A DNA stretch of 63,021 nucleotides, the filler included, from Stramenopiles sp. TOSAG23-6 (Eukaryota): assembly GCA_900128565.1 (NCBI GenBank). It is 11 parts of 11 records of this genome, joined end to end, with 100 filler letters (N's around TTAATTAATTAA, not from the genome) between each part and the next. Parts side by side here need not be neighbours in the genome. Positions count along the whole stretch, not along the records: positions 54,159 to 60,789 come from LT636670.1; 10 more parts are not named here. One strand, 5' to 3'. The position numbers and the translations under genes are program-made. Below, in pieces: positions 223 through 63,021 of this stretch. How positions within the stretch are numbered: the first letter of the stretch is position 1; the number at the start of each line of letters is the position of its first letter. The notes under the pieces are model-generated. The model was not told the DNA's origin and did no database searches. It worked only from the letters and a program-made list of their open reading frames with translations.

Positions 223-283
223 TTAATAAAAAAAATGTTTTATTCTTTTATTCTACGTAAATTATTTAATCTTCATCATCTTA

Positions 284-25608: not shown

Positions 25609-25660
25609 ACGTATTGTGAAAAATATGTTTTTAGTTTAAAACTTATTAGGTACAAAAAAA
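25609..25660 (-). mobile_element. 3' half of introner-like intron (ends GT)
   Basis: GTACCTAAT...CACAATAC-GT. Confidence 0.7.
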
Positions 25661-27070
25661 TGTCGCACAGATCTACAAATAGGCTATTTACACGTAATGG
25701 GAGGATCATCATCAATCATTACATCTGAAGTCAGGAATGTAGATAAATTCACTGAAATAAATGAAAAAGAGTCATTGTTTAATGTAGAATATGTCAATAC
25801 TATCAAAGTTGAAGACGAATGTCTTCTATTTTGGAAATTAAAAAATGAAATGCCTAAAAAAAGTAAACAACGAAATCATCGAAATCGTGAGGAGAAAAAA
25901 GAAATTGTGGATAACGATAATTGGTATAAAGAAGTATTGGAATGTACAGTTTTACGTCACTTGAAGGAAAATTTATTTATGTGTCGTTTAGCAGCACAAC
26001 TTTTAATACTTGAAAATTCTTTGTTCATTGCTACTGAAAATAGAATGAGACTTCATACTGTTTTTAACATACCTTTGTTGAATCCTTTATTACAACCAAC
26101 ACATAAGAGTAAACAACAAAATGTTGAAACAAAAGAAAGTTTTGCTGTAAAAGAGGATATTAAGACTATTGAACCTATATTTGACATGCAACAGGTTTGT
26201 GTTAATTTTCAAATAGCTCATATTTGTGCAAAGAACAAAATAAGTAATAATGTATATGCTGTAGCAACGTTATGTGACGACGAAACATTTCGATGTACTG
26301 CACCAGCACGCTCAAAGTGTAAAAAAATGACCACAACAAATACAACGAATGATTCTATTAGCGAGGAAACAAAAAAAATTGTTCGCTTTGAAACTGATTT
26401 GTTTAGTCTTAACTTATTAGGTCTCGTCGTTCATGATAAAGGTCTTCTGGTGACTAGTGTAACAAAAGACTCTGAAGCAGATGACGTCATATTACCAGGT
26501 AGTATCATTACACACTGTGCAGCGAATGTGTTGAACACTACGATAGTACGAGAAGAAAAATCATTATATCAAGCAAATAACAAAATTAAATCGCGCGGTG
26601 ATTGGATTTCGGTTAAAAACTTGCCAATAACAGTTGCCAAAGAGACTATTGTTGAATGTGGATTTCCTTTATGGATACGTGTAATTGAATTCTCTATACC
26701 GGAGCATTTTGTCCAATGGAATGAAAGTGTAATGATAAAACCGTTTCCAGAAGCACGAAATGATGGTGAAAATTCTGTGCCATATAAATTAAAAATTTCA
26801 TTGTATGCTCGAAATCCTTCTGGACAAGCCCTCATTGAGTGTAAAAATCAAAGAGATATTGATACTGTAAATCAACTTGCGTTCTTGTATGGTGATAATG
26901 AAATACTGCAAGAGATTCAACGAAGTGGTTCACTTCGAGAACCAATTTCAGACAAAGATATAATTTTGGGTCAGACTCAATTATTGATACCAACGTATCT
27001 TTTTTTTTTTTCAAATTCGAATTTATTTTTCATACGAAATTTTGTACCTAACGAATTTTTTTTTGAAATA
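25654..27070 (+). repeat. Inverted duplicate of ~20389-21805 (probable chimera)
   Basis: ORF 25697-27118 is identical to part of ORF 20341-22005 on the other strand. Confidence 0.9.
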
Positions 27071-27485
27071 NNNNNNNNNNNNNNNNNNNNNNNNNNNNNN
27101 NNNNNNNNNNNNNNTTAATTAATTAANNNNNNNNNNNNNNNNNNNNNNNNNNNNNNNNNNNNNNNNNNNNTTTTATCTTTTTTCAATTCCGATTTTTTTT
27201 TTTAGTACGAAATTTTGTACCTAACCAACCTAAATAGAATTTGACATTTTTGTTCACAAAACATTGGCTCTTCCAATTTCTTCCTTTCCTAATATGTATA
27301 CTTGTTTTGTCAAGGACGATTTTCAAAAGCCTTATTTACACACAAGAGATTTCATACTTATAGGATTTCCTATAAGTATATTAAGTGTACTTTTTTTGAG
27401 TACTATAGGAACATATTTAATAAGTTCGATTATATAATTTTATTTTTTCAAAATAAACAAATGCTTTTTTTGCTTTTTTTGCTTT

Positions 27486-33834: not shown

Positions 33835-33934
33835 NNNNNNNNNNNNNNNNNNNNNNNNNNNNNNNNNNNNNNNNNNNNTTAATTAATTAANNNNNNNNNN
33901 NNNNNNNNNNNNNNNNNNNNNNNNNNNNNNNNNN

Positions 33935-40684: not shown

Positions 40685-43600
40685 ACAGGTGGTAATATCG
40701 ACATTAAGAGTGGGAAAGGTGCCACAGCAAGTGGTTCTATCAATGTTGTTTCTGGTAGTGGTGTAACAAGAAGTGGTGCTATTAAACTTGGCTCCGGTGA
40801 TGCAAGTGAGGGCACTAGTGGGGGCGTTTTTCTTAGCTCTGGAAATGCTACTGGTGGTGATAGTGGGTCTATTCGTATGATTGTTGGAGATTCTGATAAT
40901 GGGAATGGGGTAAAATAATTATCAGTGCTGGTGCCTCATCTGCAGATGATTCATTAGGTGGTAATATCGCTTTGGGTAGTGGAATTGGAAATACAAGTGG
41001 TAGTGTTCTGGTGTCAAGCGCTAATAGCGCCTCTACAGGTTCAGTATTATTCAAAAGCGGCAAATCATTAGATGGATCATCTGGGGCAGTGACAATTGGC
41101 TCTGGCGATGGATCATCTTCTGGTAGTGTGAACCTTGTTGCTGGTGACAGCGAAAACGGTGTGGCAGGTAATATTAAAATCACAAGTGGTAACTCTGAGA
41201 TGGGTTCTGGTGGTTCTATACAATTGTTGAGTGGTGCTAGTGGTAATGATATGAGTGGTAATGTGAATTTTTCAACAGCCTCATCCATTAGAAGTGGCAA
41301 CATTTCACTAAATACCGGAGGTTCATCAAAAGGTGGTACGGGTAATATCAATTTGAGTACTGGTAAATCAACAAATGGAGAAAGTGGGCGTATCGCTTTT
41401 TCTGCAGGATCTGTCACAGCAGACAAGGGGGGGATTATTTCATTACACGCCGGAAAATCAACTTCGGCTGATGGTATCGGGGGTGGCATAAATGTAGCTT
41501 CAGGATTTGGCGAAGATAAAAGTGGTAACATATCAGTTACAACAGCTAGTAGCACACAAAGCGGCGGGCTAAAAAAGGATTATCTTCTACTGGTGCTTCA
41601 GGAAACATTAAAATTATCGGTGGTGATAGCACAACGGCTGGAGGTAATATGACACTCAGTAGTGGGTCGTCAACTGATGGCCCTGGGGGGAAAGTTGAAA
41701 TTTTGACTGGTACAGGTGTCACAAAAAGCGGCGCCCTTAAACTTTCTTCGGGTTCTGGCATTATGGATAGTGGTGCTGTTAAAATAGGCTCGGGAAATGC
41801 AAGCGATGGATTGAGTGGAGATATTTTGCTTGCTTCTGGAAATGCATCGCATGGTAAAAGTGGGGCGATTCGTCTACTTGTTGGTGATACTAATGTAGGT
41901 GCTGGAGGTGAAATTTCAATCAATGCAGGCGGCACATTTGCTGAGGAGTCCACCGGTGGTAATATATCCTTACAAAGTGGATATGGAAGTAGCACCGGTA
42001 ACGTTTCAGTTTCTACTGACAAAGGAGTATCTTCCGGCCCAGTAACATTCACAAGTGGTACTGCATCTGAAGGCTCGTCTGGTTCTGTGTATATTGGTTC
42101 GGGGGATTCTGCGAATGGTGCTGCTGGTATGGTAAGTATTGTCTCGGGTAATAGTGTTCGAAGAGCTGGCGGGGCCGTGAATATATCTGGCGGTAATGCT
42201 GCAGGCAAAGCTTCTGGTGGATCTGTGACTGTGTCAAGTGGAAGCAGTACATCTGGTACTAGTGGATCAGTTTCATTATTTACTGAAAAATCCATGGAAA
42301 GCGGTGATATTAATATGAACACAGGTTCATCAATAAATGGCAATTCTGGGGATGTTCTTATATCTACTGGGGTTTCAGGGAAATCTGCTGGTTCGGTGAA
42401 GCTGTCTGCGGGTACAAGCGAGAACATCTCTGGTGGCGAGATGTCCATTCATGCAGGTAGTGGCACAGGGGAAACTGGGGTAGGAGGAAATGTTATTCTC
42501 AATAGCGGAAAAGGTGAAATAAAAAGTGGGGAAATCAATATATCCTCGCCCGATGGTGCAAATAGTGGTTCAATTATACTATCCACTGGCGAATCTTCTA
42601 GCGGGTCTTCTGGAAGTGTAAGTATTGCCTCTGGAAATTCTTCCGAATCATCGTCAGGCAATATCGAGTTGAAAGTGGGATATTCGAAAAAAAATGCTGG
42701 GGCCCTTATTCTTAAGGGAGGTGATGGGAAAACATCTGGTAGTGATGTAACATTGCGATCTGGTAGAGGTAATTCAAATGACTCCTCAAGTGGTGGAATT
42801 TACATAGAAACAGCAAAAGGTCCTCAATCTGGAAGTGTTCGTATCACATCTGGATCTTCTTCTGCAGGATCATCCGGTGAATTAGATCTTCGGAGTGGGG
42901 ATTCTTTGAATGGTAAGGCAGGCAGAGTACAACTAAAAGTTGGTAAAAGTAAATCTGGGATTGGAGGTGGTATTACTTTGGTTGCAGGTGACACCTTGGG
43001 GCAAAGTGCTGGAGGAGTCGTCGAAATAAAGAGCGGTAAGAGTGAAAATGGTGATGGGGGTAATATTAGTATGTTAACAGGTGAAGCGAAGGCATCAGGA
43101 GCATCTGGTAGTGTCGTTCTTCAGAGTGGTAAATCAGAAGATGGGTTTTCCGGAGATATTCAAATCAGTACTGGTGACACTGCGCGTAGTCAGTCAGGGT
43201 TAATTAAGCTCTCAGTAGGAACATCAAGTGAATCAGATGGGGGAAGTATTTTAATGAATGGTGGCGCGTCCACATCTATTAATAAAACCGGAGGTGGGAT
43301 TTTACTTAGTAGCGGTAAAGGGATACCATCCGGCAGAGTTAATATTACTACGGCAGAGGGTTCTACAAGTGGAATAATTACGCTATCGACAGGTGCAAGT
43401 ATTGATGGTGCATCTGGAGAAATTGTGATCGACACTGGGAATGCGATTGGTGGGGCATCTGGCGATATCCGAATGTCTGCTGGAAATGGTGCTATCAATG
43501 GAGGCGATATTTTAATCGAGTCGGGTTCATCAAAACAATATATCGGGGGTAATATTACTCTTTCTAGTGGGAAAAGTTCGGATTATTCAAGTGGGCGCGT

Positions 43601-46600
43601 TTTTGTTGGATCTGCAAGTTCCAACTTTGGCAGTGGTCACATCTCAATTCAAAGTGGAAATTCAACCAATGGAGATAGTGGAGACATATTGATTGCTTCT
43701 GGTTCTTCTCAAACAGGCTTAGCCGGAACACTAAAATTAGTTGCGGGTACTAGTGGTAGTCAGAACGGGGCAAATGTTTTAATTTCGGCAGGGAAATCAG
43801 AAGCATTGGAAGGACTTGGCGGGAATTTACTTTTGCACAGCGGTAGTGCTAATGGAAAACAAGGTTTGAGTGGTAACGTTTCAATAAGTTCTGCTGATAG
43901 CAACTCTAGCGGGGATGTTTTAATATCTACTGGAAACTCTTCCAAAGGTCCATCAGGCGCACTCCATCTTAATACTGGGTCTGCCTCTGATGGCCAGACA
44001 GGAGATATTTTAGTAAATGTTGGTACTTCAACTCAAGGATTTGGAGGCGCTATTCAACTTCTCGGAGGATCAACATCTGGGAGAGCAAAAGGTGGCGCAG
44101 TTCAAATAACGAGTGGTGCTAGCAATGATGGAGAATCTGGCTCGATACTTCTAAATACTGCTAGTAGTAGCGGAAATAGCGAAAGTGGCAGTATTCAGAT
44201 TCAAACTGGTAATACAAAAAATGGCAGTTCAGGCAATATCCTCTTATCCGGGGGCGAGAGTACTAATGGGCGTGGAGGATCAATTAATTTACAATCTGGT
44301 TCAGGTTCCACAAATGGCTCAATCGTATTACGAAATGCAAGTGGCCAAAAACAACTTGAAATATCTGGCGATGGAGCTTTACAAATGAATAGTCATACAG
44401 GTAAAAACATTTCGATGCAAAGTGGCAGTAGCTTAAGCTTTGTTTCGGGAAAAGAAGGCCCTGGAGATGTTTTAGTTGGTACTGGTGATAATATATCACT
44501 TCGAGTTCAAAAGGAACGCATTGTGTCACATGTTCCAATCAGTGCCGTTGAGATTCTACAAAATGCAGATGAACGAATTAAACAAAATATTGAAAAGGTT
44601 GATACAGATGATATCTTGCAAAGATTACAAGACCTTGTTGTAAAGGAATATACATATAGTCCGGAATGGCAAGCGGTTCGAAATCTTAGTGAAGATGATT
44701 ACGGAGTAGGTACAAAGAAGGTTCGTGGGCTTATTGCGCAAGAAGTTTACAAGAATTTTCCCGAGTATGTGAATGTTGTCAAGAATGTGGCATATCCCGA
44801 TAAGAACTTTTACATGGAAGATATGTATGAACTAAATAAGCAGAGGATTACAATTGATTTACTTGGTGCAATACAAGCCCAACAACGTCGGTTGAAGATT
44901 GGACCAAACACACCTGATGAAAGTAGCAGTATATCGATCAATACGGCAGACGCCGGATCTTATCATGGTGCAAACAAGAATGGGGGTAGTGGTTCAATAA
45001 GCCTTATCACAGGATCAGGATCTGAAGAAAATTCTGGTGGGATTAAATTAACTTCAGGAGATGCCAAAGGTGCAACTGCAGGCTCTGTAATAATAGAAGT
45101 TGGGAGCAGCGATGTTGCTAAAGGTGGTGATATTAGTATGAAAGCCGGTGCATCATCAAAAGGGGTAGGAGGTGATATTTCAATCGAAAGTGGCACTGGG
45201 ACAACAAGTGGTCAAATTTCAATTCATTCAGGAAATTCTGACACATCAAGTGGCGATATACTGCTTGGTAGCGGAAATGCTGAATCAGGAAATTCAGGTA
45301 ATGTACGAATTGTCACAGGAAATTCACTTTCTGCTGGTTATAGTGGTGATATAATCGTTGAACCTGGAGCAAGCAATGTTAGTTCAGGGTCAAATGTTAT
45401 GATTAAGTCTGGTCATTCTTTTTCAGGAAAAGGGGGGCTTCTTCAAATACAATCAGGCGGAAGTTCAACAGGTGCAAGCGGTGAACTTTTAATGGGGACT
45501 TCAAATTCTACTACCACAACCGGAGATCTCGCTTTGTCAACAGGTTTGGCTGAAAGTGGTTCATCTGGATCAATNNNNNNNNNNNNNNNNNNNNNNNNNN
45601 NNNNNNNNNNNNNNNNNNNNNNNNNTTGGTGACAGTATTTCTAGTGAAGTTGGTGGTTCATTAGATATCAGCGCAGGGAGTGCACCACAAAATGGTGGCA
45701 ATGTATTAGTTCAAAGTGGAACTGGTCAATTTTCGAGTGGAACTATTGAACTTTCATCTGCGTCAGTTGAAAATAATAGCAGTTCTGGAAAACTCAAGTT
45801 AAGCACAGGTAGTGCACATAACGGCTTGTCAGGAAGTGTTGCAATTTCAACTGGCACATCTCATGCTGGCAATTCAGGAGAAGTGTCTATTCGTAGTGGG
45901 TCTGCTGCTGATGGTGTTGCAGGATCCGTCAAAATAAAGGCAGGTACAAGTGAGCATAGGAATGGTGGAGATATTTATATGATAGCTGGTAATGCTACAA
46001 CTGCTTCAGGTGGTGCAGTGCATCTTGTAAGTGGTAAAAGTTTGGCTCAAAGTGGTGACATTTCAATTAAAACCGCAGGTTCTGATGAAGCAAACTCCGG
46101 GTCTCTTAGCCTAGTTACAGGAAATACATTACAAGGAAGCTCTGGTGATATAAAAATCGTTACTGGGACTTCAGAAGTTGGTATTTCCGGAGAAGTAAAG
46201 CTTTCTTCAGGTGCAAATGGAAGTTCTCTCATTTTGACTGATTCTCATACAATCCTTACTGCAGGTTCATCCAGTGGTATAGGGGGTAGTGTGGTTGTTT
46301 CGTCGGGTGGGGGTGATAAATCCAGTGGTGATATTGAAATATCAACTGGTTTTGTCAAATCAAAAAATATCATGGCTAATACTGGTAAAATTTCATTAAC
46401 GACTGGTGACTCATTTGCAGGTGCAAGTGGCTCAATTTCTTTTCGTAGTGGTTCATCAGCACAGGGTTCAAGTGGTTCTGTGTCATTACAGAGTGGTTCA
46501 TCAACGGAAGGCACTGGTGGCAACATGATTGTAGCAGCTGGTAATACTGGTGCTGGTCATGGGGGATCTGTCAATATCTCTGGAGGGGATAGTTCAAATG

Positions 46601-47324
46601 CACAAGGTGGAGGATTCCAACTTTCAAGTGGAAATGGTCAAAAGAAAAGTGGTAATGCATCGCTAACTACTGCCAACACTAGTGATAGTGGTGCAACCGG
46701 TTCTATTAAAATTGAAACTGGTGTATCTGTTGAAGCTGATTCGGGATCGATAAGTATATCATCAGGTAAGAGTTTCGACGGAGCTGCTGGTACAATTTCG
46801 ATTTCTGGTGGCTTGAGCACTGGTGGCTCTGGAGGTTCCGTCATTATTGCAGGTGGAAGTTCCATTGGTTCGAATTCTATTGGAGGTGGTGTTGAATTAA
46901 CGAGTGGCAAAGGTACCCTTTCTAGCGGTTCTGTGAAGTTAGAATCTTCCAATACAGATGGCTTAAATAGCGGAAGTTTATCCTTCCAAACAGGTTCATC
47001 TGTGGACGGATTATCAGGGAAAATTTTGCTTGGATCTGGTGATGCAGATGTGTCGTCTGGCGATATTAAACTTACTGTTGGTATAAGTTCTACAAGCGAT
47101 GGCGGAAATTTAAATATCTCGGCGGGAAACACAACTTCAACAGATGCGAAAGGTGGAACAGTAAGAATTTCCTCGGGAGCTGGTGAAATGTCTGGCGGTA
47201 ATATCGAAATATCTACTAGCTCTGCTACATCAGAAAATACAGAAGCTAACAGTGGCAAAATTTCCCTAACTACGGGTGACTCATTTAAGGGTTCAAGTGG
47301 ATCAGTTATCATTGGTAGTGGTTC
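40685..47324 (+). CDS. Giant Gly/Ser beta-repeat fibre protein with an internal peptidase S74/ICA domain, partial
   Basis: Over 2000 aa of ~14-aa SGxIxIxxG repeats; ADERIKQNI...RGLIAQEV...FPEYV domain at ~44565-44890; frame breaks near 40910 and 41570. Confidence 0.8.
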
Positions 47325-47424
47325 NNNNNNNNNNNNNNNNNNNNNNNNNNNNNNNNNNNNNNNNNNNNTTAATTAATTAANNNNNNNNNNNNNNNNNNNN
47401 NNNNNNNNNNNNNNNNNNNNNNNN

Positions 47425-47523: not shown

Positions 47524-49828
47524 ATGCACCAAATGATTCTTCGTATCTTTGAGTATGTTTATAATTAGGGTTGGGGTTTCGATTATTTTTAGACGTTTTA
47601 GATATTTTAGTATTATTTTTAGTATATCGAAATGTTGAACGAGAGTGAGTCCGATTATGAGTTCGTCGCGACCGACTTGAAGAATGCTCTGAAGATTTAC
47701 TGTCTATTTTAGATTTTGTATTCTTTGGATTAAAAATAAATAAAGGTACTGGGTGGGAAGGACGTTAATATTGTAGAAAAATATGTTATATTTTTGAAAA
47801 ACATCGTTAGATATAAAATTTGTTTTTATGAAAATGTACGATGAAAAAAAAAATGAAATAAGTGAATACAAATTCAAAAATATTTTTGAAATATTTTTTT
47901 CATAGTAAAATTTGTACCTAACAAAAAAAAACAAAAAAAACAAAAAAATGAAATGTAAGTGAATACCGTACAAGTCAAAACAGATACAATCACATCCAAC
48001 ACCAGATCGTTTCATGCGCGCATGTGTTAAATCACTCAAGTCTGTGTCAACACGAAATGTTCCATTTGAAGCTGTGAGTAGTTGAATGGTCATACCACTA
48101 CTACCTAAATTTCGATCAACATAGGAAACATCAAAAATATTGAGTGTGAGATTTACAGCTTCTAAAATATTACCACATGTATTGTGAAAAAAAACAAGAA
48201 TTTTACAAAAAAAAAAAAATCGTTAGGTACGAAATGTACTATGAAAAAAGAAAACTATAAAGTAATACATTCATGATGAAAACGTGCATTCACCCGTTGA
48301 CAGAGAAACACCATTTGATTTAAGCCTGTGGTGAAACGCATGTATTTTGGAAAAATATTTCAAAACAAAAAATTCATTAGGTACAAAATTTCGTACGAAA
48401 AAAAAAACGAATTTGAAAAAAAATAAAACATACATGGAAACGGCGTCTAAATTTAGGTAATAAAGAAGTCCAATCACTGACTGCATCATTACTACATTTA
48501 ATCTCTTCATAGAAATCGTGAAATATTTTTTCGTGATTATTCTTTTTTTGCTTTTGTTTTTGTTTAGAATTAATTCGGTTTTTACGAAATTGATGCTTCC
48601 GACGGGATTTTTGATTTAGTTTATTATGAGTTCTATTACTATTAAGATGTATGGTACGACGCCGTCCAAGAGTGGTGGGATTAGTATTTGTGTTTTGATG
48701 AATTTCACCTCGGGCGAATAAGACTACACTAAATTGATGTCGGACTCCCATGCCTGTGCACTTCTTTAAAAAACATCTTAGAAAAGAGTTAAACATAATT
48801 TCCCAAATCATATCACCACTAGGTGTTAGAACAAACATTTCCAAACTGACTTGGATTAACAGAACTAAATGACACGATCTAGTACGACAGATATATTTTG
48901 TAGAGTTTTTAGTGACACCTGAGAAAACGCAAACCTGTTCTGGTCCTAGTCTATTCTCAGCGAGCTTCCCTAATTCAACACTAGTAGCTAAACCACGAAC
49001 GCGACCACTATCTAAATTTAATTGTGTTAATGCTGAATTATGACCACGAACAAGTTGTTCTACCTTAATCCCAACACCTGCAACATCGGCATACTGAGTT
49101 GAGAATAAAGTTCTTCCTTTCAAAGCTTCACGGACTGTTGGTGAAAAAGTATGTCACACAAAAAAAAATCGTTAGTTTGTCATAAAAAAAAAGAAAAATA
49201 AATTTGAAATTCATCAACGCCACGCACCTGCCCACATCTCAGCCAAATCAATTGTAGACCCAAATCCAAAAGATATCTCTACAAAATCAACACTTGTTAA
49301 TGTATGAGTTGTTTGTCGGAGCCAAACTAGCTGTCGAGCTTGGACATCAAATGCTTCGGCGACTCGTTTGGCAAGACTAATTTTCATGTTTCCACGAACG
49401 CGATCTTTTATAGCGACGACCAATGTCAAACGTCGCTTTTCATCATTCGGATGCTCCAGTTCGACTAATGTACCGGATCTAAGACTAGGAAATATCTCGG
49501 GGTTGATTACAAGTTCTTGAGAAGAAAAATCACTATCATGAACATAAAGAGAGCATTGAACAGGTTTTAGTGGTGTAAGTTCAGCTGGAGGTGGTGACAA
49601 CCAAGCTTTCTTTTTTAGACGTCGCATTCCAAGGCGCCATTTATCTTTTGCATCGCTTGAATCGAGGCGACTTATGACACCCCGGGAAACACTCCGACCG
49701 TCAGAACGATTACGGCGTTGACCACGTAATTGAAGTTGGAGTCTTGTATATTCATTCTGCTTCTGGAGATGAGCAAGCCTAGATCGCCTAGTCTTGCGTA
49801 CGCTCGGATGGAAGTGCGACTGACTCAT
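47524..49828 (-). CDS. DEPDC5: GATOR1 subunit DEPDC5/Iml1, N-terminal part
   Basis: Spliced product contains ELVINPEIFP, RTRSCHLVLLIQVSLEM, GNILEAVNLTLNIF...VDRN and CFDLRPSHPVPLF. Confidence 0.9.
47766..47971 (-). mobile_element. Introner-like intron GT-TA containing an inverted family core
   Basis: Removal gives CICFDLRPSHPVPLF, collinear with the DEPDC5 motif. Confidence 0.8.
48177..48287 (-). mobile_element. Introner-like intron GC-AT
   Basis: GCACGTTTTCATCATG...CACAATAC-AT; frame STGECGNILEAVN. Confidence 0.85.
48340..48433 (-). mobile_element. Introner-like intron GT-AT
   Basis: Frame RRRFHAFHHRL. Confidence 0.88.
49135..49227 (-). mobile_element. Diverged family intron GT-AG
   Basis: GTGCGT...ACTAAC...CACCAAC-AG; frame EMWAVREAL. 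Confidence 0.85.
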
Positions 49829-50107: not shown

Positions 50108-52296
50108 ATGCCCCGTAAAAAGAAGGGATCGAAAGTCAAAAAGAATGTTAGTTTCGAAGCTCCAATTGTAGAAAATGTCGAAGAGATACCATTCATTCGT
50201 TCTAATAGTAGTCGGCAAAATAAAAACGTGCCACCCGAGCAATGCCCAGGTATGTCAGATGCAGAGTTTGAGCAAGTTCGCGAAGAATGGATTCAGAACT
50301 ATGCTGCATACCTTGATGAAGTGAAGGATTCAGACCCCGAAACGTATAAACGTTTAATAAAAGACCTTCAAGCAAGTGTACAATCTAGGAATAGCGGCGA
50401 GAATGGTTTTTCACCTAAAGTCCCTGGCATGGAAGGAAAAGTAATGGGAAAAGGTGGCATAGTTTCTGATAAAGAACCCGAGGGAATAAAAATAGAGCCT
50501 GAGATAGGGTTTGTCATCAAAACTTTTGATCTTAAAACAGGAAAGAAAGTTTTTATTAATGTAGTTCACTCGCATTTGTTGAAGAAACCGGCAATGAAGA
50601 AAAAAATTGGTGAAGATGGAAAAGAAATTGAAGGATTGAATATTCCTTTAAGCTTAGGTGTTCCTCGACTAGCAAAGGACAAAAAAGGTGCATCTTGTAT
50701 TGTATATGATATGGTTGTGAATAGTGTAGTAATTGATGAAGCAACAAGTGACAAAACGGGGAACTATCGCCATTTTGTTTGCAATATGGCATTGACTTAT
50801 GTTCAACAAAAGTTCCGATGTGAAGTAGATTTGAAATATAAATTACCGCGCACAAAATATATATATGGGGAATCAGATAGTAAATTAGATAAACAAGAGA
50901 AGACGAAACCACGTTCTCAATATATAAGAAAAGACTTAGCACCAAAAATTGAAGAAGTGGGCCGATCAGAGAATCCCAAGAATAATTCGAATTTATCCAA
51001 ATCAAAAGTTGGTGGTAGCCCTAACCCTAACCCGAAAAAGAAAACCGGAGTAAATGTAAAAGAAAACTCTGGAAGCAACAGAGTGACTAAACTTTCTTAT
51101 GCTGCATACAAAATACGATGTCGTTATGAGAATGATCCTCCAGAAGGACGAGAATTGACAGATTATCAAAAGGTCAATGGGTGTGGAGCTCATGTACGAT
51201 TTCATCATGAATTTCAAATTGTTTTTTCATACGAAAGTTTGTACCTAAGATTTTTTTTTGAGATGTTTTGTTTTCATCATGAATTTCAAATTCATTCTTA
51301 CTTTTCCCATCAAATCTTGATGTTTTTCATACCTAACGAATTTCAAACTTGACATATTTTTTCACAATACTTGATAATACACTCCTTGGATTACCCCATC
51401 AATTATTGATATCATTTGATCTATCAAATTTTCGAGTTGTTGATATCATAACATTGTACAATGAATATCAAAAATCATCAATACCATTAAAGGAAAGCCA
51501 AAAATCATCAAAACCATTAAAGGAAAGTGTAAAGAAAAGTATACATATCGAAATGTCAAATAATTTTATCGCTGTTAGTATAGTTGGTTATCGAAAACAG
51601 GAAATATTTTTGCCATGCCCAGTTTTGAAAGGAAACGTTGATGAAATTGCGACATTTAATGGACAACAAAAAACATTAGATATTCTTCTTCAAGTTGACC
51701 CATCAGGCGGTTCTTGTCGAGGTCCCGACCCAGGATCTCGAGCATGGTTACTGGCAAGAGCATTGGAACAACCGAATTCTGCCGGGAAGCCGATAATCAC
51801 ACAGGATACAAAAAGTTTTATTTCTCCTGATAATGATACAATTGCTGAAGTTTCAGATGAAGTCTGGGCGGAGGATGCTTTTCATGCTCAGGATATGTTA
51901 TCTCAGCATTATTTATCCCAAAAACAAGAAAATAAAACAAAGCGTTCGAAAGACAAGGCAGAAGAACGACGAAAAGCAGAAGACGACCCTAATTTAAATA
52001 TTGAATATATTGATGACGTCAATGAATGGGCAAAGAAACAAAATGTAGATATTAAAGCTCCTGTTGGAACTGATGGTTCTATTCAAATTAAGGGAATGAA
52101 TGTTTCTATAGATGCCGAGAAAGTAACCAAAGCAAAACTACAAATTGATAGAAATCGAAAGCTAGAGGAAGAAATTATGAGAAAAAAAGCTGAATCGAAA
52201 CTTGCCGCAATTCCATGCCCGGTCCCACGGTCTCACGACCCCCATAGTAAAGTTCTTTCAGCAACACACGAAATGATGTTTGATTTACTAGATTAA
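50108..52296 (+). CDS. PIH1-domain protein (exons 50108-51193, 51373-52296)
   Basis: IEPEIGFVIKT...KVFINV, IPLSLG.PR...DKKG..C.VYD. Confidence 0.88.
51194..51372 (+). mobile_element. Introner-like intron GT-TT, tandem double core
   Basis: Frame CGAHDNTLLGLP. Confidence 0.8.
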
Positions 52297-54058: not shown

Positions 54059-54158
54059 NNNNNNNNNNNNNNNNNNNNNNNNNNNNNNNNNNNNNNNNNN
54101 NNTTAATTAATTAANNNNNNNNNNNNNNNNNNNNNNNNNNNNNNNNNNNNNNNNNNNN

Positions 54159-54234
54159 TTTCTAATTTAATTTTTTTTTCATACGAAATTTCGTACCTAA
54201 CGATTTTTTTTTTTAATATTTTTTCACAATACGT
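54159..54234 (+). mobile_element. 3' part of introner-like intron (ends GT)
   Basis: CGTACCTAAC...CACAATAC-GT. Confidence 0.75.
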
Positions 54235-55116
54235 GTAATGATTACAAAGCTAAAAACAGAATGTGGTTACCAATTCACATCTAAGTTAGAAGGAATGTTC
54301 AAAGATATTTCAATGTCAAAAGAAACAAATAGAAACTTTCTTGAAAGTTCACGGCTAAAAAACTCCAAGATAAATTTATCAGTGTATGTCTTAACCACAG
54401 GATTTTGGCCAACTGTTAGCGTACCTGTGTGTAATTTACCAAAAAATGTTTTACATTGTAGCAAAATATTTCGTAGTTTTTACCTAAATAAGTATAACGG
54501 ACGACGTTTGCATTGGCAAACAAATATGGGTACTGCTGCTCTGAAATTACACCTGCCAAAGGGAAAAGAGGGGCAAACTCGAAAAGAACTTTATATGACA
54601 ACATATCAAATGTGTATACTTATGTTATATAATGATTCCGATACATTAACATTTGCAGATATAAGAAAAAAAACAAATATTCCTTTGGCTGAATTGAAGA
54701 GATGTCTTGTATCGTTTTGTATTCCAAAGTGTAAACTTTTGATAAAACAACCAGACCCAAGAAAATTTAAAAAAATTGATGATTCAATGACATTTACGTT
54801 TAACGATAATTTTAAATCGAAACTATTTCGTGTGAAACTTCCACTTGTAAGCATCGTCGAGAATAAGTCTGTAAAATCAGGTATTCCTTCTGGTGTTAAT
54901 GAGGATAGAAGACACCTCATTGAAGCAGCCATTGTTCGAATTATGAAAGCTCGAATGCAATTAGATCATAATGCCCTCATTGCTGAAATCGCCCGACAAT
55001 TGAACTCTCGTTTTCGCGCTACGCCACAACAAATGAAAAAATGTATTGAAAGCTTGATTGAGAGGGAATATATTGAACGCGACAAGAATGACAGAAAAGT
55101 GTATATGTATATATAA
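54235..55116 (+). CDS. CUL3: Cullin-3, last exon
   Basis: KLKTECGYQFTSKLEGMFKD, IEAAIVRIMKAR. Confidence 0.95.
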   Translation, partial: VMITKLKTECGYQFTSKLEGMFKDISMSKETNRNFLESSRLKNSKINLSVYVLTTGFWPTVSVPVCNLPKNVLHCSKIFRSFYLNKYNGRRLHWQTNMGTAALKLHLPKGKEGQTRKELYMTTYQMCILMLYNDSDTLTFADIRKKTNIPLAELKRCLVSFCIPKCKLLIKQPDPRKFKKIDDSMTFTFNDNFKSKLFRVKLPLVSIVENKSVKSGIPSGVNEDRRHLIEAAIVRIMKARMQLDHNALIAEIARQLNSRFRATPQQMKKCIESLIEREYIERDKNDRKVYMYI

Positions 55117-55222
55117 TGAAAATAGCTGTTGAATTTCTTATTTTATTCAAAATTTTCTGTTTCTTTTTAACTTCCCCTTTGTTTCTTATCTTTTTTTGAT
55201 TTTTTTTCATCTTTTTATCTCC

Positions 55223-56122
55223 TTACGATGGTGGGATTGCATTAGGTGTATCCAGTATATCAGGATCCAAATCAGGATTCATATTTTTCATTTTAGCCTT
55301 AATTTGTTCGAGAGGCATGTGCATTTTTATAAGCATGAAATATTTCTTATATCGAGGATCATCTTTTGCTTTCAATGCGTTGGGGTCTGTATTGACTTTT
55401 TTTTTTGGTTTTGAGGCAACAATTGGTTTTTTTCCTTTGGAGTCTGACACATTTGGAATCACAAATAGTGAATGCAGTTGTTTCACGAAATCTTTCTTTT
55501 TATTTGATTCACCAATAACGTCATCAGCTTGCTGCTCCAATATAGGTTGTCCTAGCCTCGCCATGCAACTCATTAAATCAGTCACTTTTATGTATGCATC
55601 GCCATCTACAGTCATACCTGTTGCTAAGCTATCAAATGTGTAATCTAGTGCACTATCTCGTTTTTTGTTTCCTCGCTTGATTAGCTTATCCATAAATAGC
55701 GCAAAATCAACAAATGTCACAGTGTCCATATCAGTTGTTCGAGTCATTCTCGCTACCATGTATTCCAAATCACCAGTTACCTCATCTGTCATTGATACAC
55801 CGAATTTTTCATAAAAGTGTCGAAGTTCTATAACTGTTATTTCGTTTGATTCATTTGGATTGAAATGCTGAAATGCACTTCTATACGCATCAATCAACAC
55901 AAAAGATAAACCTTCGTCCTTTAAGATATCGTCATCCTCGTCGCCATTGAGTTGTCTTTTATGAATACGGTCATTGTTCAATTCTACTGAGTCTTTTTTC
56001 TTTTTTTTTTTTTTTGATTTGATAGGTGGAGGTGGGCCTGCGAGTAAAGCGCCCAATTCATGTGATGCTTTCTTTTTCTTCTTCTTCTTGTGAGAAGCTG
56101 CGATATCATCGAGTAGACCCAT
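55223..56122 (-). CDS. EF-hand-like protein with a CCDC53/WASHC3-like C-terminal motif
   Basis: Degenerate EF-hands; KDDPRYKKYF.LIKM..P......KM....LDPDIL. Confidence 0.7.
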   Translation of the reverse strand: MGLLDDIAASHKKKKKKKASHELGALLAGPPPPIKSKKKKKKKDSVELNNDRIHKRQLNGDEDDDILKDEGLSFVLIDAYRSAFQHFNPNESNEITVIELRHFYEKFGVSMTDEVTGDLEYMVARMTRTTDMDTVTFVDFALFMDKLIKRGNKKRDSALDYTFDSLATGMTVDGDAYIKVTDLMSCMARLGQPILEQQADDVIGESNKKKDFVKQLHSLFVIPNVSDSKGKKPIVASKPKKKVNTDPNALKAKDDPRYKKYFMLIKMHMPLEQIKAKMKNMNPDLDPDILDTPNAIPPS

Positions 56123-56385
56123 TCTTTTTTTTACTATCTGAATCTAAATCGTAGATTCGGGGCAAGAAAAATCATGCATGTCGATGTCGATGTCCGTTAT
56201 TTTAAGATTTCGTTTTTCTCGGCGATTTTGGCGGTTTGGTTTGCGTTTGGATACTACTTCGACTATTTATATAAAATTCTCGATCGTATCCACGGTGTAT
56301 AGGTGAAAACGTAGTACTACTTACTTTGTATACTTTTCAAAGAAATACAAACCGTGCTTGAAGTTACAAACTCTATACACTCACA

Positions 56386-58373
56386 ATGCAACATTTTCTT
56401 CTGTATGGCATATTCTTTTTTGGTTTCCTTCAAATTAATCCATCCGAAGGAAGTGGAACGAATACATTTTGTCCAAAACCACTAATCTTCCCAAAAAATA
56501 AAACCCCATCAACCAAAACTGCAGTCATTGAGTGTCAGCCTAATTGCTTTCTTCCCGTAGATGAGATTGCTGGGTATAAGTACCACGATGTGGCTCTTTT
56601 TAAGCTGGTTTATTTTGGAGTTGGTTCAGTCCTTTTGTGGGCCACTGTAGTAACACAGGTGTATAAACGAGAAAAAAGAAAACATTATCTTTTCAATACT
56701 ATGCTTATTGCCATATTATGCGCGGTACTTACGTCATATCTTCCATTGTTAATATACAATAGTGACATGAATGATCATTATTGTGCAGATGCAACCTCGC
56801 CGTTGAAACAGGGGGAAATAAGCATCAGTAAAATTTCGGAAACTGATCATTGCATTGTACAAGCTATTTCATTTACCTATTTTATTCTCGTTGCTTGCTA
56901 CATGTGGCTGAGTGTAGCATTTCAAATATACACCAGAGTGCATCATACTCCAAAATATATGACACAGAGAAAACAAATTATGATGTTGCTTCTCCCACTG
57001 CTACTACCGTTTGTTCATATAGGACTACTTTTGTCAGAAAAAGCATTTGGTTATTCGTCTCCAATGCACCTCTGCATGTTCAATGCATCATCTGTAAAAG
57101 AAGCATTTTTTCACTTTTATGTTCCGATCATAACAATTTGGTTTTTAGGAATCATTTTGCTTTTCTTAACTTCTTTCCATATTGGTTTTACAGCAGGGGA
57201 AGTAGGCTTACAAAAGAGAATGTATGTTTTATTTTTTTTCAATTTTTTGTCTAAATTTTCTTTTCGTACGAAATTTTGTACCTAACAAAAAACAATTTTC
57301 AAATATTTTTCCAAAATACATGGCATGTAAATTTTCATGAGGAATTTCAAATGTTTTTTTCACAAAGAAAATTTCATACCTAACGATTTTTTTTACTAAA
57401 AGAAATATTTTTTCACAATACATGTATACCTCTTATTTATTTACTTTCATTTAGTATAGTTGTGGGGCCTATTCTAATATATCAAATATTAATGTTTGTA
57501 GAATTTAATGATAATGTTCTACAGACAAGTGCAAATAATTGGCTTAATTGTCTTCGCGCAAATAAATTTGTAGGTATTGAAGATCCAGCAACAGATTGTG
57601 ATGCAATACTTTCTAATGATTGGAGTAGTTGTGTGGTGGAATTTATCAGTGGTCGTAAAGAATCTTATTCAAATTGCGTTGGTAGTGATAAAAAAGGCAC
57701 GAATTCAGGTTGTGGATGCGGTTCCAATGTAAAATCTTTGGGTTTTATCATTGAGGGATTCCCAATTTTTTTTGAATTGTGTGTAGGCGCTTCAAGTTAC
57801 CTTATTTTTTTCCTATATTTTCCTTACATGAAACTTTTAAGGAAATGTCTTCATCATAAAAAGGATGATAAAAAGAAGAAACAAAATGATAAAAAGGAGA
57901 AAAAGAATGAGAAAAAGGAGAAAAACAAGAAAAAAAATGAGAAAAAAGAAAAAAAGGAAAAGAAGAAAAAGAATGAGAAAAAAGATGATAAAAAAGACGA
58001 TAAAAAAGATGATAAAAAGAAGAAGAAGAAAAAAAACGATGTTAAGAAGAAGAAGAAAAAGAGTGACGAAAAAGACGACAAAAAAAAGAAAAAGAACAAA
58101 AAGAACAAAAAGAAACATGTAAAAAATCCATTAGCACTTGAAACTAAAATGGAGGCATTTGAGACTAAAATTGATGTCCAACTAGACAGTGTATCATCAT
58201 ATTCATATTCATCCGATTCTTCTTTATCATCACTAAGGGGCAGGGATGGCAAAAAAATACGTTCCAGAACAATTCAACCGAAAGACTTGAGAAATAAATC
58301 CAAACATAGTCATCCTAGACGAGTCGATTCCAAGGAAATTGCTCAATCAATGCTTGCACCTGAGATGCCATAA
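56386..58373 (+). CDS. Multi-pass GPCR-like (Frizzled/Smoothened-like) membrane protein with a Lys-rich tail; includes a 5-nt microexon
   Basis: Signal peptide, CP.PL..P and C.P.C motifs, multiple TM segments; exons 56386-57221, 57322-57326, 57424-58373. Confidence 0.7.
57222..57321 (+). mobile_element. Introner-like intron GT-AT
   Basis: Full consensus. Confidence 0.88.
57327..57423 (+). mobile_element. Introner-like intron GT-AT
   Basis: GTAAATTTTCATGA...CATACCTAAC...CACAATAC-AT. Confidence 0.85.
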
Positions 58374-59020
58374 AGTTCTAGAGATTCAATTTATCTTGGA
58401 AATTAGGATTATTGAGAGAGAGAGAGAGAGACAAACTTTGCAGTACATTTATTTTTATTGTTGTATAAGAAAAATCAGCTACAAATAAATTGTCTGAATG
58501 AGTAATAGATGATTTTAGCAATGAATAATATTGAATTGTTATACACAATGATAAATCTATATATATTTCAGATTTTTTACAGGTAAAACTGGACTTTAAT
58601 TTTTTCTTGATAATAAAAATATCACTAAAAATCATGATTCTTCATGTATTAATTTCGAAATGTTAAAAATAATAAAAAATAAAAAGTTACTATGCACGAG
58701 TTCATGAACAACAAAAGTAAAACACAAAAGTGTAGCGAAAGTGATGAAGACTCGTCAACTGACTGATTTTAATACGATTGGATTGCGATTTGAGATTGAT
58801 TGCCGGATTTGAATAAATATTGGATTTTTTTCGATTTTTTTTTTCGATTTCATCGGTTTTCTTTTTTTTGTCGGTTATATTTGCGAAATACTAATAATAT
58901 CGCAGCTAATAATCACTAGTATGCCTCAAGATATTCTATTTAACGACGACATGGCATAATCATTCAATCTTGTAAAAACATCATTGCGTACTTCAAATAG
59001 CTACGACTGATAATAGCGTC

Positions 59021-60220
59021 ATGAAGGCATATTGTATAAGAAGTATATATATTTTATTATTCGTCTTTTCATTTGCGACGTCAAGTAGTGTTCATGTGAC
59101 AAGCGAAAATTTCGAGAAGCAGGTTGCGCGAAAGGACTTTACGCTTTTACTCTTTACGGCCCCATGGTGCGGGCACTGTAAAAGACTTGTACCAATATAT
59201 GATACAGTAGCAGACACGTTCAACAAAAATCAATCAAACGTACTTGTCGCGTCTGTGGATGTAACTACCGAACAGGCTCTCGTGGCTCACTTCAATGTAT
59301 CTGGTTTTCCAACGCTTCTATGGTTTTCTCCAGATAGTGAACCCACTATTTATGAAGGAAGCATGACTACAACTGATATAATCGATTTCTTGAATTCACA
59401 GATGGGTGTTGTGCAATGTAAAGAAAAACGCAGACCAAAATACTTTGTAAACATTAACTCCATCACCTCTTTTGGCACTACCGTTTTAAACCCTTCAAAA
59501 CACGCATTTGTATTGTTCTTTGCACCTTGGTGTAGTCGTTGCAAATCACTTTCAACTTCTTTTGAATCACTAGCTTGGACATTTCGTGCTGAGCCTACTA
59601 TAGTCATTGCGCGTGTTGATGTCACAACTCAAAAAGAATTAGCTCAAGAATTTCAAGTCACGAAATATCCAGTGCTGAAATTTTTTGGTGCCTCTCCTAC
59701 TGGAGATAAAATAGTTGAAGAATATGCAGGGAAACATGAAATACAAGATATGGTAGCATTTATTAATATAAAAGCTTTTACCAAACGTTTAGTTGGTGGA
59801 GATTTTACTTCTGATGTTGGACACCTCAAAAACTTTGATATTTTAGTTTCTAACCTAATCAAAGACTTAACGCAAAAAGAAGACGCAGGTCGTGTAGACA
59901 AATCTTTGGAGGCACTACTTGACGCAACATCTTATCAAGTTGATAAGACAACTGGGGTGACGAATCATGTAATATCAGGACATTCTGTTGCACCTCTTGT
60001 AGCACATGCATATTTTAGCAATACTCATTTATATCAAGATGTTTATTCAGTAACTGCAAAAAATGTAGTACAAAAAGGTACACAGTGGCTGCTCATTGAA
60101 CAAGCAAGATTAGAAAGGCTTTTAAATAGCAAAAGCTTGACTGTGGAAAAACGGGATATCTTTATCATCAGGAGAAATATTTTGGCTGTTTTTGTAAAAC
60201 ATGTTTTAAGACATCGTTAG
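59021..60220 (+). CDS. Protein disulfide isomerase, ERp38-like
   Basis: Signal peptide, APWCGHCK, APWCSRCK, ERp29-like C-terminus. Confidence 0.9.
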   Translation: MKAYCIRSIYILLFVFSFATSSSVHVTSENFEKQVARKDFTLLLFTAPWCGHCKRLVPIYDTVADTFNKNQSNVLVASVDVTTEQALVAHFNVSGFPTLLWFSPDSEPTIYEGSMTTTDIIDFLNSQMGVVQCKEKRRPKYFVNINSITSFGTTVLNPSKHAFVLFFAPWCSRCKSLSTSFESLAWTFRAEPTIVIARVDVTTQKELAQEFQVTKYPVLKFFGASPTGDKIVEEYAGKHEIQDMVAFINIKAFTKRLVGGDFTSDVGHLKNFDILVSNLIKDLTQKEDAGRVDKSLEALLDATSYQVDKTTGVTNHVISGHSVAPLVAHAYFSNTHLYQDVYSVTAKNVVQKGTQWLLIEQARLERLLNSKSLTVEKRDIFIIRRNILAVFVKHVLRHR

Positions 60221-60398
60221 GTGAGACATTGTTTCCAAGGGGAAAAAAGTATTTTGGAGATTATTTTAACTAGAAAAAAAAGTATTTTGGAGATTATTTT
60301 AACAATACAATCTTACCAATAAATTCAACAAGTGATTAGTGCTTTCTCTCTTTATTGTTCTCTTTATTGTTCTCTTTATTGTTTTTTAATTAAAAAAA

Positions 60399-60724
60399 TT
60401 ATTCAATAGGTAAAATATCAGGAATTTGATTCACATGAGGCAAAGCCATATTATAGCATTTTATCAACTCTTGGCGGGTCAAAGGTCGAGTCGATCCGTT
60501 TTTCTTCATTGTACATGAATTGTAAAAAAAGTATTTCAAAAAAAAAATTGTTACGTACAAAATTTCGTACAAAAAAAAAAGGTTAAATTTGAAATTGAAA
60601 TGAAAACGTACACTCTTTCGATATCGACAGAGGGCCAATACTTTCACGAATTAAGCGCAATACTTTCAAATCAGCACGATTACACAATCGTCGAACTTGC
60701 CTATTTTTACCTTGATTTATTGAA
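60399..60724 (-). CDS. RsuA/RluB-family pseudouridine synthase, last two exons
   Basis: Spliced product SINQGKNRQVRRLC...LKVLRLIRESIG...RPLTRQE. Confidence 0.8.
60515..60611 (-). mobile_element. Introner-like intron GT-AT
   Basis: Frame SKECTMKKNG. Confidence 0.85.
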
Positions 60725-60789
60725 ATGTATTTTGGAAAAATATTTCAAAAACAAAAAAAATCGTTAGGTACAAAATTTCGTACGAAAAA
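60725..60789 (-). mobile_element. 3' half of introner-like intron (AT)
   Basis: Family consensus at the contig end. Confidence 0.75.
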
Positions 60790-60889
60790 NNNNNNNNNNN
60801 NNNNNNNNNNNNNNNNNNNNNNNNNNNNNNNNNTTAATTAATTAANNNNNNNNNNNNNNNNNNNNNNNNNNNNNNNNNNNNNNNNNNNN

Positions 60890-61159: not shown

Positions 61160-61905
61160 AACCCTAACCCTAATGATGATTTTGTAATGATTGGAAATAA
61201 TGGGTTACAATTTAATAATAAACCCTAACCCTAATATGATGATTTTTTGTAATGATTGGAAATAATGAGTTACAATATAATAATAAACCCTAACCCTAAT
61301 ATGATGATTTTTTGTAATAATACAATTTAATAATAATACAATTTAAAAATATGTATGTGAATATTAATTACGTGTATATGTACAAATTACTTGATGTGAA
61401 AAAAAACGTTTGGTACAACATTTCGATACAAAAATATGAAATATGCGATTTTGCAACATATACGAATAATTAGGGTTAGGGTTAGGGTTAGGGTGTATAT
61501 GTACAAATTACTTGATGTGAAAAAAAACGTTTCGTACAACATTTCGATACAAAAATATGAAATATGCGATTTTTCAACATATACGAATAATTGTACAATT
61601 TACTTGATGTGAAAATGATTATATTTTATTTTAAAAATAAAAAAGAAAGATTTGATACAAAACCAAAACTTGTTTTTTTATTTTTTCCTTTTTTTTTATT
61701 TTTATTTATTATAATGTATGGACACAACCACCATACATTCATTTATGTATACATTCATTTATTTTGTCGCTAGGAAGACATCCTCCTCCTCCCAACAACT
61801 CTTTTTTTTTATTTTTGTTTTATTTTTTTTTATTTTTATTTTTTATGTATGGACACAACCACCATACATTCATTTATTTTGTCCCTAGGAAGACATCCTC
61901 TTCCT
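61160..61905. repeat. Complex tandem repeats with CCCTAA/TTAGGG tracts
   Basis: ~65-bp units containing AAACCCTAACCCTAAT, ~120-bp units flanking (TTAGGG)4, and a duplicated GGACACAACCACCATACATTC unit. Confidence 0.8.
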
Positions 61906-62218
61906 NNNNNNNNNNNNNNNNNNNNNNNNNNNNNNNNNNNNNNNNNNNNTTAATTAATTAANNNNNNNNNNNNNNNNNNNNNNNNNNNNNNNNNNNNNNN
62001 NNNNNCTATGAGTCTATGACATGACAGAAACTTTTGACACGTGTTATGACTCGCGAGTCGCGACACGTGTCACAAAAAAAAAACTACCTATATACACTTC
62101 GACTTCGAACATCTTCTCGAATCTCTCTCGACGTCTCTCAGAGAAATATAAAATTGTACTAGACTGAAGCATTATTTGAAAATGGAACGAGTGGCAGAAT
62201 TAAGATAATAGGATCATC

Positions 62219-63021
62219 ATGAAGTTATTAAAGAAAGAAATTAGTAATAAGGATGGAGAAGGTATGATTCTTATTCTTCCAGAACATGCTGAAGACATGT
62301 GGCATGTGTATAATCTTATCACTGAAGAGGACCAAGTTCGAGCTACCACGTTTCGCAAGGTTGTGACTTCATCATCTACAGGATCAACGACATCTGAAAA
62401 AAAAAGAGTAATGCTAACTCTCAAGGTTGAACAAGTTGATTTTGATCCAGCTGAGGGTTTAATTCGTGTAAAAGGTCGTAATATAGAAGAAAATCCGTAC
62501 GTTAAAATGGGTGCGTATCACACCATTGACTTAGAAATAAATAGGAAGATTCAATTAGCCAAACCATGTTGGGACGCTGTGTTTCTTGAGCGCCTTGAAA
62601 CTGCAATCGACGTATCTAAATCTGCTGATCTTGCAGCCGTCGTTATGCACGAAGGTTTAGCTCATGTTTGTCTTGTCAGTCAATATATGACGATAGTACG
62701 TGCAAAGATTGAACAAAGTATACCCAAGAAACGTCGCGGATGAATAAATTCTACGAAGCTATCTTACAAGCTATTGTGCGTCATATAGACTTCGATGTTG
62801 TAAAATGCTGTTTACTTGCGTCACCTGGTTTTATAAAAGACGATTTCTTCAAATATATTTTTAGTCAAGCTGCTAAAAGAGGAGAGGGTGAGAAAGAGTT
62901 GAAGGCATTATTTGAGCATAAAAATAAATTTGTAAAGTGTCATTCAACATCTGGGCATAAACATGCATTGAATGAAGTACTTGGAGACAGTAGTGTCATG
63001 GCTCCAATGGCTGATACAAAA
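62219..63021 (+). CDS. PELO: Pelota/Dom34, partial, frame break near 62740
   Basis: EDMWHVYNLI, KMGAYHTIDLE, IPKKR; continues as NKFYEAILQAIVRHIDF...LASPGF in another frame. Confidence 0.93.

Follow-up and report, generated by a model that had tools for sequence, protein, structure and literature searches.

Five nucleotides, GGCAT, separate two adjacent introners in a receptor gene of the marine protist Stramenopiles sp. TOSAG23-6 (GCA_900128565.1), and we propose that they form a real, probably functional 5-nt exon generated by two independent insertions of a GT-AT introner family. The main productive mRNA can be expected with some confidence to keep GGCAT, the two introner copies being removed separately, and it would then encode a protein of 596 amino acids. 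The gene lies in LT636670.1, which occupies positions 54,159-60,789 of the 63,021-nt stretch of DNA analysed here (the window, to which coordinates refer unless a contig or locus is named). The window is AT-rich, with a GC content of 0.23-0.44 in 2-kb bins, and the assembly is fragmented, with 21.1 Mb in 6,236 contigs. The parts of the gene, all on the plus strand, are as follows.

56386..57221 (+): exon 1 from the ATG at 56386, encoding the N-terminal region and helices 1-5 as predicted, in an open frame with five hydrophobic segments; ends in the AT target.
57222..57321 (+): intron 1, a subfamily A family copy of 100 nt; donor GTATGT, acceptor AATACAT, no AG; its end is CCAAAATACAT.
57279-57286 (+): branch motif TACCTAAC of intron 1; branch A at 57285, 36 nt from the intron end.
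57322..57326 (+): candidate microexon GGCAT, 5 nt, predicted to supply the last base of a Met codon, an Ala codon and the first base of a Cys codon of the mRNA.
57327..57423 (+): intron 2, a subfamily B family copy of 97 nt; donor GTAAAT, which lacks G at +5, acceptor AATACAT, no usable AG; its end is CACAATACAT.
57377-57384 (+): branch motif TACCTAAC of intron 2; branch A at 57383, 40 nt from the intron end.
57424..58373 (+): exon 3, with helices 6-7, a Lys/Asp-rich tail and the stop at 58371-58373; rival acceptors are the AT at 57426-57427 and the AG at 57453-57454.

A first, sequence-only reading had placed two family copies 5 nt apart, with GGCAT at 57322-57326 and both insertions after AT, and this description holds: the copies at 57222-57321 and 57327-57423 are complete, AT stands directly 5' of each, and both have a GT donor, a T-rich body, the TACCTAAC motif and an AATACAT end. 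Its in-frame peptide QKRMACIPLIY is likewise recovered, the frame being open when both copies are removed and GGCAT is kept, and the junction probe that it proposed agrees with this model. The final AT of GGCAT doubles as the target site of copy 2 and as a competing acceptor; its distance to branch point 1 is 41 nt, the family median. Short direct repeats at both junctions allow the boundaries to slide through four registers for intron 1 and seven for intron 2, none of them ending in AG, while an AT...AC register is formally possible at both junctions. The letters GGCAT rest on the GT...AT register of the family, and the mRNA is identical in every register.

The frame from the ATG at 56386 enters copy 1, and a second frame, already open inside copy 2, continues as far as the stop at 58373; for the 279 and 141 codons tested, such openness of the flanking exons has P ~1e-13 in random sequence of that composition. 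The predicted host protein is a Frizzled/cAMP-receptor-like seven-transmembrane (7TM) protein, 596 residues long in the two-intron model. Since Pfam matches neither host exon (there is no match for exon 1, exon 3 or the paralogue L012), the family label comes from the domains of homologues: an exhaustive search found 23 of these at E<=0.001, and Dicty_CAR, Frizzled or 7tm_2 is present in four of the eight scanned. An Atlas feature match of 0.93 between L012 and Frizzled-type clusters is a lead only. Two paralogous genes are present in the genome, L012, which is intronless and resembles both exons, and L010, which has one family copy 8 codons upstream of the host site; the sites of the intron pair are empty in both. 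By hydropathy, the joined host model has seven hydrophobic segments, as does L012, and the pair is located just before helix 6. The C-terminal third of the host, in exon 3, is a long Lys/Asp/Asn-rich low-complexity tail that is absent from L012. Word-index protein searches with exon 1 among longer and similar-length proteins found no same-species protein at E<=0.001, and a related-locus search gave 97 candidates with one weak locus (28 residues, not used) and no close relative. Seawater metagenomes contain sequence near-identical to the window DNA; a two-motif pattern for the spliced GGCAT junction had 0 matches in metagenome contigs. Of the words at window positions 55000-60000, a fraction of 0.07-0.23 recurs in each of four metatranscriptome runs, a measure of whole-segment word sharing that is not specific to the GGCAT junction.

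Splice models were enumerated by frame and then scored against an HMM of the four closest homologues (P0001, P0002, L010 and L012) and pairwise. The frame runs into a stop if GGCAT is simply skipped or if one of the copies is retained. The sequence-only reading had argued from the frameshift caused by skipping; the plain skip does end in a stop, but the argument is insufficient by itself, because nine single introns with GT or GC and AG ends also keep the frame open, as do several non-canonical cuts. One of the nine is the canonical GT-AG intron 57222-57454, for whose exclusion homology was needed. Frame alone thus does not prove a microexon. Homology, on the other hand, settles most of these cases. 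Counted from the conserved Trp of helix 5, the spacing W0-G22-P31-Y34-F38-P44 is found in P0001, P0002 and L010; the two-intron model matches it without gaps and is top or joint top in the pairwise scores against these three proteins. L012, the remaining member of the four, exceeds this length by two residues and gives higher scores to two rival models. In the HMM comparison, the two-intron model reaches 202.2 bits versus 169.8 for GT-AG 57222-57454, which is also 29-49 points lower in all four pairwise scores. Models of the same or nearly the same length are inseparable by HMM score (199-203 bits), a model with a 9-nt exon being 0.6 bit higher, and the family acceptor rule is therefore needed to choose among them. 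Homology is taken here to fix the sequence before insertion, not the present mRNA.

The family itself has three of the properties expected of introners. First of all, many similar intron-sized copies are found at unrelated positions. A pattern of branch point plus 3' end has 6,884 matches in the 21.1-Mb genome, as against 218 when the pattern is reversed as a control; double hits and duplicated contigs are counted, so that the figure is not a copy number. A first-look DNA search of the genome gave 1,767 family candidates, and 90 distinct complete copies of 81-133 nt are found in many genes at unrelated sites. Second, removal restores the frame exactly. A clean frame test started from 87 distinct strict copies (fetched loci plus the window), of which 35 have clean 120-nt flanks; the other 52 were left out because their flanks were short, contained N or showed the signal of a neighbouring intron. 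A cut from GT to the consensus AT opens the frame in 30 of the 35, whereas the other two frame classes are open in 2/35 and 0/35, and four copies are closed in all three; with a looser filter (47 copies), the frame is open in 30 at the consensus AT versus 3 and 5 in the other classes. The gap-free spacing of the host also belongs here, as does a kinesin gene with a back-to-back copy pair, whose flanking exons match Pfam up to position 292 and from position 293. In an iron-sulphur-protein gene with such a pair (L078), the Pfam fit is within one position, not exact. Third, the insertions are absent from the homologous positions of the paralogues L012 and L010.

When the 3' end is left free, the consensus-end dinucleotide in 117 copies is AT in 82, TT in 13 and AG in 3. 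Where a single copy is followed by an AT whose last base is the fourth of the next exon, the consensus acceptor is still used in two of three cases (the third is closed in all frames) and in four of five looser rows (the fifth is doubtful). At the 5' end, the donor is GTATGT or GTACGT in 81/90 copies, with A at donor +5 in 7/90. AT precedes the donor in 70/90; the remaining 20/90 lack it, and the invariant 5' end is therefore GT, not AT, which bears on the AT...AC sliding register. The distance from the branch A to the intron end is 30-48 nt across the family. Older copies in the window, with branch motifs at 14565, 16191, 22787, 25656, 51326 and 54190, end variously (AG, GT, TT and others). 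Copies with internally duplicated halves, giving composite introns of ~160-190 nt, are seen at ~51195-51375 (+) and 23270-23430 (-), and a 52-nt exon (48285-48336, minus strand) lies between two copies in an IML1 gene, the second copy having a GC donor.

The motif TACCTAAC is the yeast-type branch consensus plus one C, and it coexists with the ordinary GUAGUA of the U2 snRNA that we find at L088:129-325. The introns are likely to be removed by the major spliceosome, from an acceptor that does not depend on AG. Three other intron classes were considered and rejected. A canonical U2 GT-AG intron has no AG available in any sliding register of either intron, and AG models fail homology. The U12-type consensus has the donor RTATCCTT and the branch site TCCTTAAC; the donors here, GTATGT or GTACGT in most copies, and the invariant 5' GT do not fit a U12-type AT-AC intron. 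Hairpin-defined non-conventional introns of the euglenid/Amoebophrya type would require folding, for which introns 1 and 2 have z scores of -0.33 and -0.56 against shuffles, with the ends unpaired in both minimum-energy folds. As in a MITE, on the other hand, there is a probable target duplication together with a terminal inverted repeat; the repeat is short, ATGTAT/ATACAT for copy 1 and 5 nt for copy 2, and includes the duplicated AT. Such ends fit a MITE-like element in which the right-hand copy of the target would serve as the acceptor.

The two copies belong to different subfamilies, with both ends of copy 1 of the A type and copy 2 assigned to B, and they are only 61-64% identical (0.61-0.64), which supports independent insertion. 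Other copies are closer to each than the two are to each other (84-86 of 88 copies for copy 1, 76-81 of 88 for copy 2). The closest relatives in this sample of 88 are 0.87-0.93 identical to copy 1 and 0.75-0.79 to copy 2, which suggests that copy 2 inserted first. The divergence between the copies rejects tandem duplication of one copy, and one composite 202-nt element is rejected too, the removal of all 202 nt leading to a stop. The sequence-only reading had claimed independent insertion and precise removal; independence stands, on the subfamilies, the intronless paralogue sites and the homologue spacing, whereas precise removal is a step that we infer and to which a frame-keeping skip, discussed below, is an alternative.

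The sequence of events that we envisage is as follows. Two non-autonomous MITE-like introner copies of different subfamilies would have inserted at different times after two ATs that lie 5 nt apart, each insertion duplicating the AT. Each copy would bring with it a U2-type donor, a branch point and a long consensus acceptor whose final AT is one of the duplicated target copies, so that removal from GT to AT would restore the original sequence exactly. The introns would be defined singly (intron definition) and removed consecutively, since two spliceosomes cannot sit 5 nt apart.

To see how unusual such an arrangement is, a single two-anchor pattern was run genome-wide, giving 28 matches for spacers of 0-30 nt and 70 for 31-60 nt. 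For the 0-30-nt census, rows without the branch motif in the first copy were set aside and four matches were merged as duplicates, leaving six pairs at 0 nt, two at 1-12 nt and one at 13-30 nt; the two at 1-12 nt are the GGCAT pair and a pair with a 4-nt spacer, GTAT, in contig C3746. Many short-spacer pattern matches proved false on inspection, the first or second copy being missing, and were dropped. At 31-60 nt there are 55 distinct places by eye, of which 29 are in the branch-anchored list and 18 of 26 fetched have the motif, giving 47. The availability of AT (1.12, 1.85 and 3.12 sites for 1-12, 13-30 and 31-60 nt) predicts ~17 and ~28 pairs in the two shorter classes, where 2 and 1 are seen. 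Exons of 1-30 nt between copies are thus strongly depleted (3 versus ~45 expected), with a fairly sharp rise above 30 nt, and the six strict 0-nt pairs are about half of the ~13 predicted from the ready-made AT target. Contigs often break at copies, a caveat for these counts in that close pairs may be lost selectively. Looser patterns and by-eye calls bring the numbers to roughly nineteen at 0 nt, four at 1-12 nt (spacers of 2, 3, 4 and 5 nt) and roughly eleven at 16-30 nt. For 1-30 nt this still falls far short of the number expected, and neither the strict patterns nor the looser patterns nor the by-eye calls yielded a genuine pair separated by 6-15 nt. Besides the GGCAT pair, the closest pairs are the following.

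G000:C3746 (L075), oriented 977-980 (-): 4-nt spacer GTAT in a PAP2-like gene; inclusion leaves the frame open and a plain skip leads to a stop; the spacer with the next GT reads as a perfect donor.
G000:C752 (L157:812-814): 3-nt spacer; the first copy lacks the branch motif and the second ends in AG.
G000:C1941 / C1272 (L034:701-702): 2-nt spacer GT in a pfkB-family kinase gene; inclusion, or a skip with the acceptor 2 nt upstream, gives the same protein.
L014, L018, L020, L022, L026, L027, L028, L030, L033, L049, L066, L076, L077, L078, L096, L097, L106, L110 and C3669: ~19 back-to-back pairs (0 nt), in kinesin, iron-sulphur-cluster and other genes.

Within-pair identity is 0.56-0.78 in the ten pairs measured (nine at 0 nt and one at 4 nt). 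The upstream exon of the 4-nt-spacer gene has no homologue, only a sub-threshold PAP2 match at E 0.025, and that case consequently rests on frame. The 3-nt pair suggests one-step removal where the frame allows it. GGCAT is a rare survivor, neither unique nor the shortest of its kind, and the depletion suggests that exons of 1-30 nt are usually mis-spliced.

The inclusion model has points against it: donor 2 lacks G at +5, models of near length tie in the HMM scores, L012 favours two rivals, and exons of 1-30 nt are depleted. The main alternative is a skip with rescue, in which the pair is removed as one unit and the AT at 57426-57427 is used, giving a protein three residues shorter. This could happen in one step, or recursively, with the microexon's own CAT, which abuts donor 2, acting as a ratchet point, and its corollary is that very short exons survive in the genome only where such a rescue exists. 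The frame would be open, helix 6 would be kept, the branch-to-acceptor distance of 44 nt is within the 30-48 nt of the family, and the resulting protein ties with the best model in the pairwise score against P0002. Furthermore, a frame-keeping skip is available for all four spacers of 2-5 nt (by an AT at -2 for 2 nt, in frame for 3 nt, by an AT at +5 for 4 nt, and as described for 5 nt here), while an AT ending at +4 or +7 is found in only 17/82 copies, and the 6-15-nt spacers are those for which no genuine pair was found. This four-case pattern is, however, small and post hoc. The spacing would be three residues short of P0001, P0002 and L010, and the frame class concerned is open in 0/35 clean single copies; where a copy has an AT at +4 available, that AT is left unused, and skipping GGCAT should therefore mostly yield a frameshifted product. 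Branch point 1, acceptor 1 and donor 2 are moreover all present, although dispensable under one-step removal; in the 3-nt pair, by contrast, the branch motif of the first copy is gone. We thus regard the skip with rescue as unlikely, but as an alternative to be taken seriously.

Two further alternatives are, in our judgement, both very improbable. In the first, a single canonical intron is removed and there is no microexon, the candidates being GT-AG 57222-57454 (233 nt) and GC-AG 57206-57402 (197 nt). Both cuts leave the frame open and end in AG, the acceptor at 57454 follows a pyrimidine-rich run, and the GC-AG model has the length of the homologues. The GT-AG cut, however, deletes the conserved P-L-x-Y...F-S and half of helix 6, with the loss in bits given above, and needs an acceptor 71 nt away from the branch A, where the family has 30-48 nt; the GC-AG cut scores 197.2, makes family sequence exonic and loses G22, which all four homologues have, and AG stands at the consensus end in only 3/117 copies. 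In the second, the gene is dead or poorly spliced, the copies being plain MITE insertions, the second of which inactivated a dispensable receptor paralogue. Two paralogues are indeed present, short exons are depleted and no transcript of the gene was seen, but both large exons are free of stops and frameshifts although the copies differ by 7-25% from their closest sampled relatives, the splice signals are intact, and family copies in conserved genes restore the frame.

A protein of the same length could also be obtained through other non-canonical cuts, either as a single GT...AA intron, 57222-57418, or with an acceptor at 57427 and an exon of 9 nt at 57318-57326; between these and the two-intron model, two or three codons differ. 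Their HMM scores are within 1 bit, but they need acceptors at -5, or at -4 and +4, for which the frame classes are open in 0 and 2 of the 35 clean copies, and we give them slightly less credence still. Least probable of all, hardly worth entertaining, is an assembly or amplification artefact or one composite 202-nt element: the window does contain duplicated and inverted segments and gaps at family copies, but the two copies are unlike each other, the 5 nt must be coding for the flanks to join into a single homologous protein, and removal of the 202 nt leads to a stop.

Several features of the window were noted in passing. The whole 6.8-kb piece at 1-6797 is directly duplicated at 6798-13594, and 20289-21808 and 25651-27170 form a perfect inverted duplicate of 1,520 nt, both of which are probably amplification or assembly artefacts. 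The N gaps (N runs around a TTAATTAATTAA linker, for example 27071-27170, 33835-33934, 47325-47424, 54059-54158 and 60790-60889) are mostly inside or beside family copies, and it follows that the assembly breaks at these introns. Long intron-free frames of 1,359 and 627 aa at 41553-47376 (+), with GC 0.39-0.44 and a Peptidase_S74 chaperone domain, are possibly from a tail-fibre-like or foreign gene. Short CCCTAA arrays, which we take to be telomere-like, occur at 61160-61495 and at many loci inside introns and apparently also inside exons. At 62204-63021 (+), a frame presumably of pelota/eRF1 type stops at 62741-62743 and seems to resume in a different frame; the break contains no family copy.

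The following comparisons refer to excerpts of the papers cited. Like the introners described in PMC9860276 and PMC12130899, the family consists of many look-alike introns at unrelated sites with a short target duplication and a terminal inverted repeat; in PMC9860276 these features have counts of 49/130 and 72/177 families. The 3' end here is AT, unlike those of PMC12130899, where the 3' sites in the methods passage are only AG and AC. In Fritillaria borealis, genome-wide non-GT/AG introns are processed by a U2-type spliceosome, are linked to introner transposons with weak splice sites and are accompanied by duplicated U2AF (PMC13326754). The present family resembles that system in its genome-wide escape from GT/AG under a U2-type spliceosome, but differs in that the 5' GT and the branch point are nearly invariant and there is a single dominant 3' consensus. 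The non-canonical introner elements of Amoebophrya (PMC7789003) share with it repeated introns, direct repeats over the exon-intron borders and inverted repeats; theirs, however, have inverted repeats of 8-20 nt, hairpins and highly variable ends, whereas here the repeats are 5-6 nt and there is no excess of folding.

Microexons of 1-5 nt are already known. Plant microexons of 1-15 nt are described in PMC8831610, Arabidopsis APC11 has a 1-nt exon, with sequential intron removal around 1-nt and 9-nt exons as the plant model (PMC4674806), and human MPC1 has a 4-nt exon (PMC9929638). GGCAT, if included, resembles constitutive microexons whose length is not a multiple of three in that it is frame-critical, too short for exon definition, a candidate for sequential removal and missed by annotation, and frame, homology and the family acceptor rule agree with its predicted inclusion. 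Those known cases are old, conserved and flanked by ordinary introns, whereas GGCAT is young and lineage-specific and lies between two mobile insertions with AT acceptors. As in stwintrons and ratchet points, an acceptor lies at or near a donor, with removal in consecutive reactions. A stwintron is an intron whose donor, branch point or acceptor is split by another intron lying inside it (PMC6616335); here both copies are complete and side by side, and neither interrupts a splice signal of the other, so that this class was rejected. From a zero-nucleotide ratchet point the locus differs in the five coding nucleotides that separate the consensus sites, unless the skip with rescue holds and the CAT abutting donor 2 acts as such a point. 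In the openly accessible articles searched, we found no microexon between introner copies and no GT-AT introner family; what is added here is a microexon between two introner copies together with a genome census of spacers.

If inclusion of GGCAT is confirmed, the locus would give a direct view of how a microexon originates when two mobile introns insert independently within a few bases of each other. AG-free 3' choice is also put to a natural test, the ATs at 57320-21, 57325-26 and 57426-27 competing within 9 exonic bases, and the ancestral protein results from only one combination. A gene finder that relies on GT-AG would arrive at an open-frame but wrong solution, 57222-57454, and lose half a transmembrane helix. 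More broadly, and only tentatively, we suggest that new microexons and ratchet points arise when one member of the GT-AT introner family inserts beside another, that neighbours 2-5 nt apart are removed singly, with a choice between ATs 4-5 nt apart made without AG, and that selection removes most exons of <=30 nt while sparing the 0-5-nt pairs. If this is true, the pairs with spacers of 0, 2, 3, 4 and 5 nt would be a ready-made series for the study of 3' splice-site definition without AG recognition, and of the birth of microexons.
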